The notes below the pieces were generated by a model, which saw only the letters and a list, made by a program, of their open reading frames with translations, did not search any database and was not told the DNA's origin. From sequence record OL631482.1: a stretch of DNA of 64,000 nt; one strand, written 5' to 3'. Each line of letters opens with the position of its first letter. Position 1 is the stretch's first letter. This stretch comes from Escherichia phage ECML-359. Below are positions 5,157-39,108 of the stretch, piece by piece. Made by a program: the position numbers and the translations under genes.

Positions 5157-5233
5157 TGGTCGGGGTGGTGGGATTCTAACCCACAACCTACGGTTTAGAA
5201 GACCGTTGCTCTATACAATTGAGCTACACCCCG
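5157..5233 (-). tRNA. tRNA-Arg (anticodon TCT)
   Basis: Hand-folded cloverleaf: acceptor CGGGGTG/CACCCCG, anticodon loop CTTCTAA, T-arm GTGGG-TTAGAAT-CCCAC, encoded CCA. Confidence 0.85.
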
Positions 5234-5309
5234 GGTGGCCCCATCCGGACTTGAACCGGAAACCTGCCAGTTATGAGCCGGATGCTCTAACCAATTGAGC
5301 TACAGGGCC
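5234..5309 (-). tRNA. tRNA with CAT anticodon (Met by anticodon; the T4 counterpart with CAU is tRNA-Ile)
   Basis: acceptor GGCCCTG/TGGGGCC, D-arm GCTCAATTGGTTAGAGC, anticodon loop CTCATAA, T-arm CCGG-TTCAAGT-CCGG; directly abuts tRNA-Arg. Confidence 0.8.
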
Positions 5310-6565: not shown

Positions 6566-6751
6566 TTACTCACCTTTGGAGATTTTATCCATAACGAAAG
6601 AGATTGAACCAATTAAAAATGCAACTACTAAAGAGATTATATTCTCAGAAGTTGAAAGCATATTCAACATAAAGCCAGCAAACATGCTAAAACCAAAAGC
6701 GGTAACAGCAACAAGGGCAGTAACATTTCTAATTAATTCGCAACGTTTCAT
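6566..6751 (-). CDS. small hydrophobic membrane peptide (61 aa)
   Basis: almost entirely hydrophobic; first gene after early promoter cassette 6752-6808; tightly coupled to downstream ORF. Confidence 0.45.
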   Translation of the reverse strand: MKRCELIRNVTALVAVTAFGFSMFAGFMLNMLSTSENIISLVVAFLIGSISFVMDKISKGE

Positions 6752-6808
6752 TTTATTCTCCTCAGTAGTTGATGGGATAATTATACGCTATCCCATTCAA
6801 AAGTACAC
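6752..6808 (-). promoter_or_regulatory. early promoter in stem-loop (tgggata/tatccca) upstream of 6566..6751
   Basis: -10 TATAAT in loop; -35-like GTGTAC 17 nt upstream. Confidence 0.5.
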
Positions 6809-7063
6809 TTATTTTTTAGGGATACGATAGTAACGCATCTCAACATCTTTCTGCTTGTGCCACTTTTTGATAAGGTCTTCAGAACCTTTAATGGTAACGA
6901 TGTCATAGCGACCATCATGCGATACTTCAGCACTTAACTGCATGAAGTTGTCTAGTGAACGGCGCAATTCCTCATTAGAAAAACTACCACGCGGGGAACC
7001 AACATAAGCAAACTCAACTTTTGCATCTGCGGCTTCGTTAATAAATTCTTGATAAGTTTTCAT
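6809..7063 (-). CDS. internal protein (capsid-targeting leader MKTYQEFINEA)
   Basis: N-terminus matches T4 IP capsid-targeting sequence; 84 aa; own promoter cassette. Confidence 0.75.
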   Translation of the reverse strand: MKTYQEFINEAADAKVEFAYVGSPRGSFSNEELRRSLDNFMQLSAEVSHDGRYDIVTIKGSEDLIKKWHKQKDVEMRYYRIPKK

Positions 7064-7119
7064 GTTGTCTCCAGTAGTTGATGAGATAATTATACTGCAG
7101 TTATCCCATCGCGTATACT
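7064..7119 (-). promoter_or_regulatory. early promoter in stem-loop (internal-protein cassette)
   Basis: gatgagataattatactgcagttatcccatc; -10 TATAAT. Confidence 0.5.
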
Positions 7120-7362
7120 TTATTTTAAGTCTTCCAGACGTTTTTTCATCTTGGTGCCGTTCTTAGCAATCTCGCCTGCATCAGAACAAAGAGCAAGGAG
7201 AGCTTTAACTTTACCCTGGTCGCCTTTAAAAGATGATGCATCTACTGAATCAGCAAGTTCTTTGATACGTGCAAACAGGCGCTCTGCTTCAGCAAGGGCT
7301 TGACCAAGTTTAACTTCCATACCATGGGAAGATTCTGTTATAAATGTTTGATAAGTTTTCAT
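7120..7362 (-). CDS. internal protein (leader MKTYQTFITES)
   Basis: capsid-targeting-like N-terminus; 80 aa; own promoter cassette 7363-7407. Confidence 0.7.
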   Translation of the reverse strand: MKTYQTFITESSHGMEVKLGQALAEAERLFARIKELADSVDASSFKGDQGKVKALLALCSDAGEIAKNGTKMKKRLEDLK

Positions 7363-7407
7363 GTTGTCTCCAAGCCATAAAAAGGGGATAATTATCCCCT
7401 TTTGTTA
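7363..7407 (-). promoter_or_regulatory. perfect 24-nt palindrome aaaaggggataattatcccctttt (terminator/promoter cassette)
   Basis: perfect inverted repeat between two internal-protein genes. Confidence 0.5.
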
Positions 7408-7707
7408 TTACATCTTACTACCACGAATTACGCCATAAGCAGCGAAGTCGTCAGTGATATTTTTAGGAGTGTTTTTACCCGTTTCAATGAAAGCGATGCT
7501 TGATTTCTGACTAAAAGAGGTAATTTTGTTATAGTTAGAGTCAAGGAAGGTATAACCATTTTTACGCAGCTGGTCAAAGTCTTCAGCGTCGCCTTTACCT
7601 TTGAAGTCAACCCATTTGTAGGTGTTTTTCTTCTGAAGGCCCAGAGGCCAGGTTTTTGCTTCTGCCAGGTAATTGTTTTCTACCAAAAATTCATGAAAAG
7701 TTTGCAT
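7408..7707 (-). CDS. internal protein (leader MQTFHEFLVEN)
   Basis: capsid-targeting-like N-terminus; 99 aa. Confidence 0.65.
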   Translation of the reverse strand: MQTFHEFLVENNYLAEAKTWPLGLQKKNTYKWVDFKGKGDAEDFDQLRKNGYTFLDSNYNKITSFSQKSSIAFIETGKNTPKNITDDFAAYGVIRGSKM

Positions 7708-7715
7708 TTGAAATC

Positions 7716-7988
7716 CTATTTAAGATAAATTGCGTATTTTTTATAACCAGCCGTCTCATGGCGAAGACCCTTGTCATTGGCAAAACGCTCAATGTTATTA
7801 ATTTGGTTCTGGTCAAGTTCTGAAATGCCAAACGCGAAAAAGTTGCGTTTGTTGCCAATTGTTATATGGTCAGTTAAGTCAATGCTATACAGGTGATTGA
7901 TATTGTCAATCATAGCTTTGACTGCTTTACTAATTTTTACTTCTTCATTTAGTTGTGACTCGTTGAAAAATTCATTGAAAGTTTTCAT
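7716..7988 (-). CDS. internal protein (leader MKTFNEFFNES)
   Basis: capsid-targeting-like N-terminus; 90 aa. Confidence 0.65.
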   Translation of the reverse strand: MKTFNEFFNESQLNEEVKISKAVKAMIDNINHLYSIDLTDHITIGNKRNFFAFGISELDQNQINNIERFANDKGLRHETAGYKKYAIYLK

Positions 7989-7996
7989 AAGAAACC

Positions 7997-8329
7997 TTAT
8001 TTATAAAGTTTTGCTAGTTCTTTACGTCCGCGAGCAGACATAATAAATTGTTCATCGCCAATTTTAAAATAAGCCATACCGCCGTCAACAGCGATACCAA
8101 TTTCTTTAGTACCTTCTTTGCCTTTCCACTTGCCACCAGATTTCAGGACAGCTTCAACTGCAGCTTTGGAATATTTGGACGTTTGAAAACGTTCATTACC
8201 AATCTGAAAGAAAACACCATCTGCATTTTTGGTTAAACCAAATTTCAGGGAGCCTTCACTATCATCAATTGATTTGGTCTCATTGATGGCGGATTCGGCT
8301 AAAAACTCGTTGTAAGTTTTGATGTTCAT
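7997..8329 (-). CDS. internal protein (leader MNIKTYNEFLAES)
   Basis: capsid-targeting-like N-terminus; 110 aa; early promoter stem-loop 8330-8393 upstream. Confidence 0.65.
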   Translation of the reverse strand: MNIKTYNEFLAESAINETKSIDDSEGSLKFGLTKNADGVFFQIGNERFQTSKYSKAAVEAVLKSGGKWKGKEGTKEIGIAVDGGMAYFKIGDEQFIMSARGRKELAKLYK

Positions 8330-8393
8330 ATTAACTCCGTTTGTTCATTCGTTGGTGTAGGAACATAATACTGCACCTACACTTATTTGTACA
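8330..8393 (-). promoter_or_regulatory. early promoter (-35 TGTACA, 17-nt spacer, -10 TATTAT) in stem-loop gtgtagg/cctacac
   Basis: upstream of first internal-protein gene. Confidence 0.5.
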
Positions 8394-9084
<691 letters not shown>

Positions 9085-9085
<1 letters not shown>

Positions 9086-9762
9086 TATATTACCTTATTA
9101 ATTTTATCAAAAAGTTCTTCGAGTGTGCCATCGTTTTTAATAACAATGTCACTAGCTAGTGGTGGAAGTCCAGCTTCCGTAATGTGTGTATCGGTAGAAT
9201 GATTTGCTTCATCGCGTTCTACAAAGATTATTGTAGCACCCATCGCCCGAAGCGAATCAAGTTCGTTCTTTTGACGAACATCTGGGACAACGTAATATTT
9301 ATATCCAGAATAGAGGTTGTCAAGATAATCGCACGCAAAAGTTTTAATCCAAAACATGCTGTCGAACTCTGTACAAACGATGTCAGTTCCAAGGGTCTGC
9401 ATGAAACGTCTAACTGTCCAGGGCTCAACATTATTTAGTGTGTGAAATTCAATGATTTTACGAACCATATCTGGATTCGGAAGGTCAAGATTGTATTGTT
9501 GTTTCAACCATTCAAGAGCATCAACCAGAAGAATATAAGCTTCGGTGTTGTTCATTATCAAGGTTTTTTCACGGTCATAACCTTGTCCATCAAAATTTTC
9601 CAGGGTCAAATTGTGTGGCAGGTCTTGACGAATCCACGCTTTATAAAGCGCTTCTTTAATCGGACCTGCAAGCTGCCACTTTGTTCCGTTTTGACTAATA
9701 ACATAATCAGCAGTCGTATCTTTACCACTGCGTTTTTTACCCACAATCGCAATTAATTTCAT
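9085..9762 (-). CDS. 1: deoxynucleoside monophosphate kinase
   Basis: P-loop GKKRSGKDTTAD, ...THITEAGLP...NDGTLEELF matches T4 gp1. Confidence 0.9.
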
Positions 9763-35365: not shown

Positions 35366-36940
35366 ATGGCAGGTTTTAACACAATACTAAATTTTCTTAA
35401 GCCTTGGGCTAAAGAAGATGAACAAGAATATAAGCAACAAGAAAAAAATAATTTAGAGTCAATGACCGGGCCGAAGTTTGACGATGGGGCTCGCGAAATT
35501 GAGTCACAAGAACAAAACGTCCCGTATAATGCATTGATGCAACAGATGTTCGGGAGTAATGAACCTGAAGTAAAAAATACCAGGGAATTAATTGACACAT
35601 ACCGCAACTTACTAAATAATTATGAAGTTGATAACGCGGTGCAAGAAATTGTGTCTGATGCTATCGTTTTTGAAGACGGTAAAGATGTTGTAGCTCTTAA
35701 CCTTGATGCTACCGAATTTAGTCAGAAAATTAAAGACCGAATCCTCGAAGAATTCACGGAAGTTAATAACCTCCTCAATTTCGAGCGTAAAGGTTCTGAC
35801 CACTTTAAACGTTGGTATGTGGATTCTCGAATTTTCTTCCACAAAATTATCAACCCAGCAAAACTTAAAGATGGAGTTCAAGAACTTCGTCGCCTTGACC
35901 CAAGACAAATCCAGTTCATCCGTGAAATCGTTACACGCATGGAAAATGGCACAAAAATTGTCGACGGTTACAGAGAATATTTTGTATACGATACTGGCCA
36001 TGAAAGTTATTGTGCCGATGGTCGTATATATGAAGCAGGTACTAAAATAAAAATTCCTCGTGCGGCGATTGTATATGCGCATTCTGGATTACTCGATTGC
36101 TGTGGCAAGAATATCATCGGATACTTACAACGAGCAATTAAACCTGCAAACCAATTAAAACTATTAGAAGATGCTTTAGTCATTTATCGTATAACTCGTG
36201 CCCCAGACCGCCGAGTCTTTTATATCGATACTGGGAATATGCCGTCTCGTAAAGCAGCAGCACACATGCAACATATTATGAATACGATGAAAAACCGTGT
36301 CGTATATGATGCAACCACGGGTAAAATCAAAAACCAACAGCACAACATGTCTATGACCGAAGACTATTGGTTGCAACGTCGTGATGGTAAAGCAGTCACC
36401 GAAGTTGATACTCTCCCAGGCGCGCAAGGCATGTCGGATATGGACGATGTTCGCTGGTTTAAGAACAACCTATATCAGGCTCTCCGAATTCCATTATCTC
36501 GTATCCCTAATGACCAAAACAGCGGCGTTATGTTTGATGCGGGCGCGACAATTACTCGCGATGAATTGAATTTCTCTAAATGGATTAGGCAGCTACAGAA
36601 TAAATTTGAAGAAGTTTTCCTCGACCCGCTTAAAACCAACCTTATCCTGAAAAAAATTATTTCAGAAGAGGAATGGGAAAAGGAACTAAATAATATTAAA
36701 GTTACGTTCAACCGTGATAGCTATTTCACCGAAATGAAAGACGCAGAAATCATGGAACGCAGAATCAATATGCTAACGATGGCTGAACCGTTTATCGGTA
36801 AATATATTTCGCATCAAACGGCTATGAAGGACTTCCTCCAGATGTCTGATGAAGAAATTAATCAAGAAGCTAAGCAAATTGAATTGGAGTCCAAAGAGGC
36901 TCGTTTCCAAAACCCTGAAGAAGAAGAAGAGGATTTCTAA
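35366..36940 (+). CDS. 20: portal vertex protein gp20
   Basis: 524 aa; synteny; acidic C-terminus. Confidence 0.95.
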
Positions 36941-37191
36941 TGGATGATTTATTTGAAGCCATTAAATCAAACGACCTCGTAGCCGTTCGCAAATATTTTG
37001 CTGAAAACATTGGCCCAGTATGCGGTAGTTTGATTGAAGAACGTAAGATTGAAATTGCACGTTCCATCATGATTGAAGGCGAAGAGCCTAAAGAAGATGA
37101 TGAAGACGGTAAAGCAGAAAAGAAAGACAAAAAAGAATCTGATGACGCTGACGAAGGCGACGATGATGAAGATGATGAGGACGATGAATAA
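36940..37191 (+). CDS. 67: prohead core protein gp67
   Basis: 83 aa, acidic C-terminal tail; ATGG overlap. Confidence 0.85.
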
Positions 37192-37619
37192 TGTTTATTA
37201 TCCCTGATGATTACGAATTAACTCTTGAAAACATTGAAAGTGTTTCCGAAGAAGCTCAGGGACAATTTGATTCATTATCTGAAGCTTTAGAAAAAGACGA
37301 TATAAATATTATTGTAGAAAACATGTTTGCAGCTGGTGAATATGAAAAAGCAACGGTTATCGGCGCGCTGAATGAAGGTGTTCAGCTTAACGAATTTATC
37401 GTTAAACATGTATCGTCTCGCGGTGAGTTAACCCGCACAAAAGACCTAGCTACTCGTAAGCGTAATGCTTTCCAAACAACTGGTCTTTCTAAAGCTAAAC
37501 GTCGTCAAATTGCCCGTCTGGCTACTAAAACAAAAAGAGCAAACCCATCTACGCAAATCAGAGCAGAGCGCAAGCGCAAAAAAGCTCGAGCTAAGCGTAA
37601 AGCATTCGGACTTGATTAA
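37191..37619 (+). CDS. 68: prohead core protein gp68
   Basis: 142 aa, basic C-terminus; synteny. Confidence 0.85.
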
Positions 37620-38257
37620 TGGAACAGAAACCAGAGTTACTAATCGAACACTGGGGTCAACCGGGCGAAATTAAAGATGGTGTACCGATGTTGGAATCTC
37701 ATGATGGTTCCAGCACCGGTTTAAAGCCAGGACTTTATATTGAAGGTATTTTCCTACAAGCTGAAGTTGTTAACCGTAATAAACGACTTTATCCTAAACA
37801 TATTTTGGAAAAAGCCGTTGCTGATTATATGACAGAACAGGTTGCTACTAAACAAGCTTTAGGAGAATTAAATCATCCGCCCCGTGCTAACGTCGACCCT
37901 ATGCAAGCCGCTATTATTATTGAAGATATGTGGTGGAAAGGTAATGATGTATATGGCCGCGCGCGTATTATCGAAGGCGACCATGGCCCAGGTGATAAAC
38001 TTGCTGCAAATATAAGAGCAGGTTGGATTCCAGGTGTATCTAGTCGTGGACTTGGTTCCTTGACTAAATCAGCAAAAGGTTATAGCATCGTTAATGAAGG
38101 TTTTAAATTGACGGTTGGAGTAGATGCAGTATGGGGGCCAAGTGCTCCGGACGCTTGGGTCAAACCAAAGCAGATTACAGAATCACAAACGGCAGTTGCC
38201 GATACCAGTGCCGATGACGCCTTTATGGCTCTCGCAGAGGCTTTAAAGACGTTATAA
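37619..38257 (+). CDS. 21: prohead core scaffold protein and protease gp21
   Basis: 212 aa; synteny. Confidence 0.9.
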   Translation: MEQKPELLIEHWGQPGEIKDGVPMLESHDGSSTGLKPGLYIEGIFLQAEVVNRNKRLYPKHILEKAVADYMTEQVATKQALGELNHPPRANVDPMQAAIIIEDMWWKGNDVYGRARIIEGDHGPGDKLAANIRAGWIPGVSSRGLGSLTKSAKGYSIVNEGFKLTVGVDAVWGPSAPDAWVKPKQITESQTAVADTSADDAFMALAEALKTL

Positions 38258-38260
38258 ATA
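38253..38260 (+). promoter_or_regulatory. late promoter TATAAATA (gene 22)
   Basis: exact TATAAATA overlapping gene 21 stop. Confidence 0.55.
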
Positions 38261-38289
38261 AATGTATATCTTAACAACAGGACTACAAA

Positions 38290-39108
38290 ATGCTTAAAGA
38301 ACAACTCATTTCTGAAGCTCAGAATATCGATGCTTCCGTTGCTCTCGATAGTATTTTCGAATCAGTTAATTTGTCCCCGGAAGCGAAAGCTACCTTCGGC
38401 ACTGTATTCGAAGCTACCGTCAAGCAACACGCCATCAAACTGGCAGAATCTCACATTCACGCCATCGCTGAAAAAGCTGAAGAAGAAGTCGAAAAGAATA
38501 AAGAAGAAGCCGACGAAAAAGCAGAGAAAAAACTGAAAGAATCTGCCGCTAAATTCCTGGACCACGTTGCTAAAGAATGGCTCGCTGAAAATAAACTGGC
38601 TGTCGACCGTGGCATTAAAGCTGACCTGTTCGAATCCATGTTCACCGGCATGAAAGAACTGTTCGTTGAGCACAACGTTGTTGTTCCAGAAGAATCTGTC
38701 GATGTTGTTGCAGAAATGCAGGAAGAACTGGCTGAACAGAAAGAAGAAACCGCTAATCTGTTCGAAGAAGTTGCTAAGCGTGATGCTTATATCAATTATG
38801 TCCAACGTGAAGTTGCGTTGACTGAAGCGACTAAAGACCTGACTGAATCTCAAAAAGAAAAAGTTGGTTCTCTGGTAGAAGGCATGGAATACTCTGATGC
38901 ATTCGGTACCAAAATTGGCGCTATCGTTGAAATGGTTAAAGGTCAGGTAGAACCCACCAACAAACCAATCACCGAAGCCGCTATAAATAAAAATGTAGAC
39001 GATGCTGCGGCACTGAATTACATTTCAGAAGCAGTTGAAGAAAAAGGCGCCAAGCCTACCCTGTCCTTCGCGGACTTGTCTGCTCTCGCAGCATCACGAA
39101 TTTCTTAA
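38290..39108 (+). CDS. 22: prohead core scaffold protein gp22
   Basis: 272 aa, highly charged E/K-rich. Confidence 0.9.
   Translation: MLKEQLISEAQNIDASVALDSIFESVNLSPEAKATFGTVFEATVKQHAIKLAESHIHAIAEKAEEEVEKNKEEADEKAEKKLKESAAKFLDHVAKEWLAENKLAVDRGIKADLFESMFTGMKELFVEHNVVVPEESVDVVAEMQEELAEQKEETANLFEEVAKRDAYINYVQREVALTEATKDLTESQKEKVGSLVEGMEYSDAFGTKIGAIVEMVKGQVEPTNKPITEAAINKNVDDAAALNYISEAVEEKGAKPTLSFADLSALAASRIS

Follow-up and report, generated by a model that had tools for sequence, protein, structure and literature searches.

Five consecutive minus-strand open reading frames (ORFs) at positions 6809–8329 of a 64,000-nucleotide stretch of Escherichia phage ECML-359 (sequence record OL631482.1; the whole stretch is called the window here) encode small proteins that each begin with a variant of the capsid-targeting sequence (CTS) of T4 internal proteins (Ips). 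We name these genes A to E, from the highest coordinate to the lowest. Our analysis leads us to conclude, with considerable confidence, that they are ip genes of a hyperplastic ipI locus, and that their products would be targeted to the head by the leader and probably injected as anti-defence effectors. A preliminary description of the same DNA had proposed such an array; genomic context, homology and the literature support it, and the idea itself is not new.

All five ORFs are present as reported in that description, with the N-termini, from A to E, MNIKTYNEFLAES, MKTFNEFFNES, MQTFHEFLVEN, MKTYQTFITES and MKTYQEFINEA. Across the window, 687 ORFs begin with ATG and reach 40 aa or more; the leader pattern ^M.{0,3}[KQR]T[YF]..F[ILFV].E matched only five of them, all in the cassette, implying that the leaders are not a product of chance. 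Work on T4 IPIII found its 10 N-terminal residues to be enough for packaging, with positions 4 and 7 important in targeting and positions 8 and 10 in processing; the gp21 protease cleaves after the Glu of L/I-x-E (review PMC9026906). An aromatic residue (Y/F) at position 4, Phe 7 and Glu 10 occur in all five leaders, A being counted after its MNI extension. This two-residue N-terminal extension (MNI-KTY...) is found in the Gaprivervirus copies of A and is absent from its relatives in other phages. Leucine or isoleucine at residue 8 is kept in four leaders, giving the cleavage motif I-N-E in E, I-T-E in D, L-V-E in C and L-A-E in A. The site in B is atypical: it reads F-N-E, with F at P3 of the putative gp21 site, and an alternative L-N-E lies five residues on, at residues 13–15.

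B, C, D and E also match PHROG families of internal head or virion proteins over their full length, the alignments starting at the first residue of protein and profile alike and so including the leader (Table 1). The names Ip5, Ip6 and Ip9 come from the annotations of relatives; ip9 of VR7 is B, and ip5 of VR26 is D by gene order. A Pfam search of the five cassette proteins gave no match, and none of the annotations that we checked lists A among the internal proteins. The label of internal-protein gene can now be given to the whole cassette, A and C included, whose present annotations are poor or wrong.

Table 1. Features of the internal-protein locus, its borders and the prohead genes in the window
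Feature	Position	Strand	Support
Ip gene A, 110 aa, leader MNIKTYNEFLAE/S, family F3	7997..8329	-	phrog_3966 'unknown function'
Ip gene B, 90 aa, leader MKTFNEFFNE/S, family F2 = Ip9	7716..7988	-	phrog_7673 internal head protein, E 9.5e-56, 1-90/90
Ip gene C, 99 aa, leader MQTFHEFLVE/N, family F5	7408..7707	-	phrog_2667, E 5.9e-21
Ip gene D, 80 aa, leader MKTYQTFITE/S, family F6 = Ip5	7120..7362	-	phrog_3499 internal head protein, E 2.4e-41
Ip gene E, 84 aa, leader MKTYQEFINE/A, family F1 (Ip6-like)	6809..7063	-	phrog_8111 internal virion protein, E 1.6e-15
T4-early-type promoter TGTACA-17-TATTAT and stem-loop 8355-8382, then A Shine-Dalgarno	8330..8393	-	
Early promoter GTATAC ... TATAAT and stem-loop 7080-7110, then E Shine-Dalgarno	7064..7119	-	
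Early promoter GTGTAC ... TATAAT and stem-loop 6769-6800, conserved downstream border cassette	6752..6808	-	
Perfect 12+12 palindrome AAAAGGGGATAA/TTATCCCCTTTT, then T-run: terminator-like hairpin after C	7380..7403	-	
Late-promoter consensus TATAAATA, exact, over A stop codon, 9 nt before B ATG	7998..8005	-	
Late-promoter consensus TATAAATA inside gene 1, 211 nt upstream of 57A	9296..9303	-	
Gene 1, deoxynucleoside monophosphate (dNMP) kinase	upstream side of cassette		Pfam, 4e-77
57A	upstream side of cassette		Pfam GP57, 5e-25
57B = Acb1 anti-CBASS phosphodiesterase, conserved upstream border	8394..8849	-	Pfam PF23474, E 1.2e-59
trna.4 small membrane protein, conserved downstream border	6566..6751	-	phrog_1692, E 7e-34; T4 synteny
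trna.3	downstream of trna.4		phrog_1411
gp21 prohead core serine protease, expected leader-removing enzyme	37619..38257	+	Pfam Peptidase_S77, E 4.9e-102
Prohead core genes (gp67, gp68, scaffold gp22) on either side of gp21	36940..39108	+	Pfam GP67, E 4.8e-19; T4_CASP, E 3.8e-91

The window belongs to Gaprivervirus, the VR7-like T4-type coliphages of the Tevenvirinae. Over the 2.4 kb surrounding the cassette, DNA identity to Escherichia phage EAWsc9 is 98.8%; the alignment with vB_EcoM_VR7 covers 81% of that length at 94% identity. Both phages belong to this genus. The genes run gene 1/57A/57B/[ip genes]/trna.4, in the same order as in T4, VR7 and EAWsc9, and by this synteny the cassette occupies the classic polymorphic ipI locus between 57B and trna.4. 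In T4 the interval holds a single gene, ipI.

Behind the leaders the five payloads are mutually unrelated, as had been claimed: pairwise BLASTP of the leader-stripped proteins gave best E values of 0.047–0.07, over 15–17 residues only. We also found no homology between the five mature payloads and T4 IPI*, IPII* or IPIII*. The predicted mature parts are 70–98 aa long, with isoelectric points of 8.0–9.3. The preliminary description had counted close homologues without the leader, if they had a defined unrelated function, against its reading. A search of 5.8 billion proteins gave 11 relatives for A and 4 for C, in T4-like phage contexts wherever these were named; all 15 bear the leader, and no leaderless or bacterial homologue of either protein was present in that set.

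Two stretches of protein A are an internal duplication of each other (FFQIGNERFQTSK/YFKIGDEQFIMSAR), and the model of this protein shows two beta-beta-beta-beta-alpha repeats that form a Whirly-type domain, with Whirly and PUR proteins as the best structural matches. The predicted fold suggests a nucleic-acid-binding or protein-docking module. The model of C is weak, a pLDDT (predicted local distance difference test score) of 71 being reached by one of five models. In the EAWsc9 record, A is named 'profilin' (L001 3998–4330, in our extract of that genome) and C 'homing endonuclease' (L001 3409–3708). We reject the first label on the strength of the structural matches just given; the second is unsupported, no PDB match to C being better than E 0.9. 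Tiny ORFs in the same record carry labels such as 'ovule protein', 'oleosin' and 'malate synthase'. All these names seem to be automatic labels that read too much into the sequence, and they should not be carried into other records.

EAWsc9 has seven leader-bearing ORFs in total. One is the sole leader-bearing gene of its second Ip locus, beside denV and e (86 aa; record 132426–132686; L033 4427–4687, minus strand), outside the window, and it is a paralogue of C (36% identity over 61 aa, E 1e-14). A further ORF of EAWsc9, of 55 aa and outside the window (record 91660–91827; L036 41660–41827, minus strand), has the CTS-like leader MKTFKDFINE/D; its body (AGDAGGNPTNIATGTTSGAVV...) resembles the mature gp23 N-terminus (GGDHGYDATNIAAGQTSGAVT...).

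We compared 33 versions of the locus, namely those of the window, EAWsc9, VR7, P8 and T4 and 28 IMG/VR loci retrieved via 57B. The comparison bore out the expectation of payload turnover behind a conserved leader. The loci hold from zero to five leader-bearing genes, the array studied here being the largest, and where trna.4 was found the 57B–trna.4 gap ranges from 268 to 1666 nt. Altogether there are 68 leader-bearing genes, which fall into 12 payload families and carry 28 leader variants. The leader MKTYQEFINE fronts four different payload families, and family F2 stands behind at least five leader variants. Payload order is F3-F2-F5-F6-F1 in the window, F3-F2-F5-F8-F1 in VR7 and F3-F2-F6-F1-F4 in P8; T4 has F9 alone. 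In the alignment with VR7, DNA similarity stops at 7331, directly after the leader codons of D, and restarts at 7126, where the next promoter cassette begins. P8 lacks the C module, the gap extending from 14 nt into the C leader (7694) to the ATG of D. The breakpoints thus fall just after or within leader codons or at a cassette start, implying that leader DNA and promoter cassettes are the recombination joints. Two irregular loci were also seen. A suspected leader loss in L011 is explained by a GTG start, and L022 (5453–5835) has an intact leader (MKSYQEFLME...) on an ORF of 34 aa, behind which comes an ORF of 79 aa without a leader; a frameshift may have split one ip gene into this pair.

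This variability bears on what packaged proteins of this kind might do. Their main role could be structural or physical, in neutralizing DNA charge, in setting the kinetics of head assembly or in escorting the DNA. We think such a role improbable: the presence of zero to five genes from a dozen unrelated families among close relatives fits accessory genes in an arms race, and the T4 ip genes are dispensable, with Ip1, Ip2 and Ip3 each directed at a specific anti-restriction target, a distinct GmrSD type IV enzyme that it inhibits (Silas et al., 2025; PMC12373910). The reading as anti-defence effectors agrees with the description of T-even Ips as a diverse set in which the CTS alone is conserved (PMC3012670, PMC12373910, PMC2839356), with more than 30 variants known (Arbiol et al., 2010; PMC2839356).

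The genes had been described as separated by stem-loop promoter cassettes, which holds in part. Cassettes in which a T4-early-type promoter overlaps a stem-loop stand upstream of A, E and trna.4; the C–D junction has a hairpin only, and the A–B and B–C gaps, of 8 nt each, have no cassette. The stem-loop upstream of A (-13.9 kcal/mol, z -2.2) belongs to a cassette that aligns with the one upstream of T4 ipI, and the cassette before trna.4 aligns with the corresponding T4 region; the cassette upstream of E is an 87% repeat of the latter within the window. At the C–D junction the palindrome (-13.1 kcal/mol, z -3.0) has no -35 element, implying that D has no promoter of its own. Folding z-scores of the stem-loops are modest throughout, from -1.2 to -3.0. 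Elements resembling early-promoter/stem-loop (PeSL) cassettes were described at the two highly variable Ip loci by Repoila et al. (1994), according to Arbiol et al. (PMC2839356).

The preliminary description had also stated that no late promoter was seen inside the cassette, and had treated this as a caveat for packaging. The first statement is not strictly correct, since one exact TATAAATA on the gene strand overlaps the A stop codon. This copy arises from the C-terminal LYK* of Gaprivervirus A and is present in the three Gaprivervirus-type loci L005–L007; relatives of A elsewhere end in ...FK and lack it. We nevertheless doubt that it is a genuine late promoter of B, because the start would be too near the ATG and the Shine-Dalgarno sequence would be lost. 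With the spacing of T4 late start sites, transcription would begin within a few bases of the B ATG. The motif is commoner in the window than expected (21 copies versus 4.6). Another copy, inside gene 1, could supply late transcripts that read through into the cassette; T4 gene 1 also contains one TATAAATA. As for the caveat, T4 ipI, ipII and ipIII have early-promoter/stem-loop upstream regions with no TATAAATA within about 100 nt, and their products are nonetheless reported in the head, at about 300 copies each (PMC9026906). The caveat therefore carries little weight. A literature search on the timing of ip gene promoters, on the names Ip5–Ip9 and on the virion proteomics of VR7-type phages found nothing usable.

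The promoter arrangement could also be read as a sign that the ORFs encode early cytoplasmic accessory proteins that are never packaged, their 5' ends being kept as a module for recombination or translation initiation. The promoters directly upstream are indeed only of the early type, leader DNA together with the ribosome-binding site is repeated within the cassette at up to 88% identity, and the recombination breakpoints fall at leader DNA. What is conserved among the 28 leader variants, however, is the protein: targeting and cleavage residues persist despite synonymous and conservative DNA changes, and a gp21-type cleavage motif follows in frame. The T4 ip genes, too, share this promoter type while their products reach the head in hundreds of copies, according to the literature. 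We therefore give the unpackaged alternative very little credence.

The machinery that would process such proteins is encoded in the window, where gp21 is flanked by gp67, gp68 and gp22; gp68 was assigned by position and by the EAWsc9 annotation. gp23 is encoded there as well and has the sequence L-T-E/A at the position of the T4 cleavage site. We propose the following sequence of events. The N-terminal CTS of 10–12 residues carried by each protein would bind the precursor to the gp22/gp67/gp68 core during prohead assembly, as work on T4 IPIII suggests. gp21 would then cut after the Glu of L/I-x-E, leaving a mildly basic mature protein of 70–98 aa in the head. On infection, the mature proteins would exit with the DNA and act at once, each most likely disabling one variant of a host defence. 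By analogy with T4 Ip1–3, that defence would be a modification-dependent type IV nuclease of the GmrSD kind, and this is the weakest link in the scheme. Transcription would start at the T4-early-type promoters upstream of A and of E, with the hairpin intervening after C, and late supply might come by read-through from the late promoter upstream of 57A. The array itself would have been assembled and reshuffled by recombination at leader-coding DNA and at the early-promoter/stem-loop cassettes, as the breakpoints indicate.

Several observations weigh against this scheme. The F-N-E of B departs from the L/I-x-E consensus, A has two additional residues ahead of its targeting sequence, and D lies behind a hairpin with no promoter of its own. 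Packaging, processing, injection and anti-defence activity are predicted for the five proteins by comparison with T4. Because the payloads are unlike IPI*, IPII* and IPIII*, a role as GmrSD inhibitors is likewise proposed by analogy only. Finally, glucosylated hydroxymethylcytosine (glucosyl-hmC), the substrate of GmrSD in T4, is probably absent from Gaprivervirus DNA.

This last point was examined using the whole genome of EAWsc9 (L035, L036, L037, L033 and L001) as a proxy for the window phage. T4 gp42 (the dCMP hydroxymethylase), alpha-gt and beta-gt gave no tblastn match at E<=0.01 in EAWsc9 (PQ341120) and the window, whereas the controls gp43 and imm did, implying that glucosyl-hmC is probably lacking. 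The syntenic slots uvsX-imm-43 and 47-55 of EAWsc9 are without gp42, alpha-gt and beta-gt; its annotated genes include Alc, denA, denB, a dCTPase and an Arn-like gene. Two papers note that Gaprivervirus has no hmC transferase, although it retains dCTPase, denA, denB and alc, and that its DNA may contain some unknown base (PMC8056088, PMC12115623).

A five-gene Ip array, with one more Ip gene at the second locus, in a phage that apparently lacks both hmC and glucosyl-hmC may mean that some of its Ips act beyond nucleases specific for glucosyl-hmC. The injected effectors could be aimed elsewhere, at nucleases that sense another base modification of Gaprivervirus DNA or at unrelated defences, a possibility that we find credible if somewhat doubtful. 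In its favor are the undetected modification genes and the published lack of the hmC transferase, to which can be added the absence of similarity between the payloads and Ip1–3 and the identity of the neighboring gene, an enzyme acting against CBASS (the cyclic-oligonucleotide-based antiphage signaling system). On the other hand, F1, F2 and F6 also occur in loci with T4-like 57B and trna.4 (L008, for example), which are probably from glucosyl-hmC phages; Silas et al. propose GmrSD variants as the targets of all genes at both Ip loci (PMC12373910); and the BrxU type of GmrSD also cuts hypomodified DNA. Only tentatively, then, do we suggest that some Ips of this array, such as the Whirly-like A, are directed at something else than the GmrSD nucleases specific for glucosyl-hmC. 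If so, injected internal proteins would have a wider range of targets than is known at present.

Some features of the surroundings can be added. 57B, 83% identical to its T4 counterpart, is a second counter-defence gene that adjoins the internal-protein array. Downstream of the locus, the window has two tRNA genes (5157–5309, minus strand), a tRNA-Arg(tct) and one with a CAT anticodon that is labelled Ile2 in EAWsc9 and Met in VR7; the T4 counterpart of this region has eight tRNAs and segB. The GC composition of the cassette is not unusual.

How much of this is new can be stated simply. The shared leader, the unrelated payloads, the early-promoter stem-loops and the injected anti-restriction function are all already published (Repoila et al., 1994, as cited by others; Rao & Black, 2010; Arbiol et al., 2010; Silas et al., 2025), and the exact array is already in GenBank. 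The shared-leader design has been known since 1994, experiments published in 2025 carried its anti-restriction logic over to Ip2 and Ip3, and published support for a common leader with variable payloads includes PMC3012670, PMC2839356, PMC4122927 and PMC12373910. The targets of a five-gene array in a genus of unsettled DNA chemistry could be the sole new part. The locus provides five candidate injected effectors unrelated to Ip1–3, and knowledge of what these act on could show which features of Gaprivervirus DNA host nucleases recognize and whether Ips act beyond GmrSD.

Of the systems already known, the Ip loci of T4 and the T-even phages, whose proteins bear names of the type Ip4–Ip13 in GenBank, are the closest. 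They share with this locus the 57B–trna.4 slot, the CTS leader, the gp21-type site and a variable number and order of genes, together with small, mildly basic, mutually unrelated payloads and flanking T4-early promoter/stem-loop elements. T4 differs in having one gene at the ipI locus against five here, and the payloads of the window are not homologous to its IPI*, IPII* and IPIII*; the MNI- extension of A, the F-N-E site of B and the apparent lack of hmC and glucosylation genes are features of the window phage or its genus. In Gaprivervirus and its relatives, EAWsc9 has an identical five-gene array, and among VR7, VR25, VR26, SP18, EAWsc9 and P8 one or two modules have been swapped or deleted between relatives. 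Their annotations are inconsistent, A being 'hypothetical' or 'profilin', and C becoming a 'homing endonuclease' in EAWsc9.

The PeSL cassettes (Arbiol et al., 2010; Comeau et al., 2014) are similar in placing a promoter and a stem-loop between accessory genes as a shuffling joint. The PeSLs of RB49 and phi1 and the elements of T-even Ip loci are nevertheless analogues, not homologues, the latter being built on T4 early promoters with weaker, AT-rich stems (PMC2839356), and in the window PeSL-like cassettes stand at three junctions only. The array also resembles anti-CRISPR and other anti-defence islands, which likewise stack small, unrelated and rapidly exchanged inhibitors in a fixed hotspot, in this case beside Acb1. 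Those islands express their products after entry, whereas the products of this locus would be made in advance, packaged by means of a shared leader and delivered together with the DNA.

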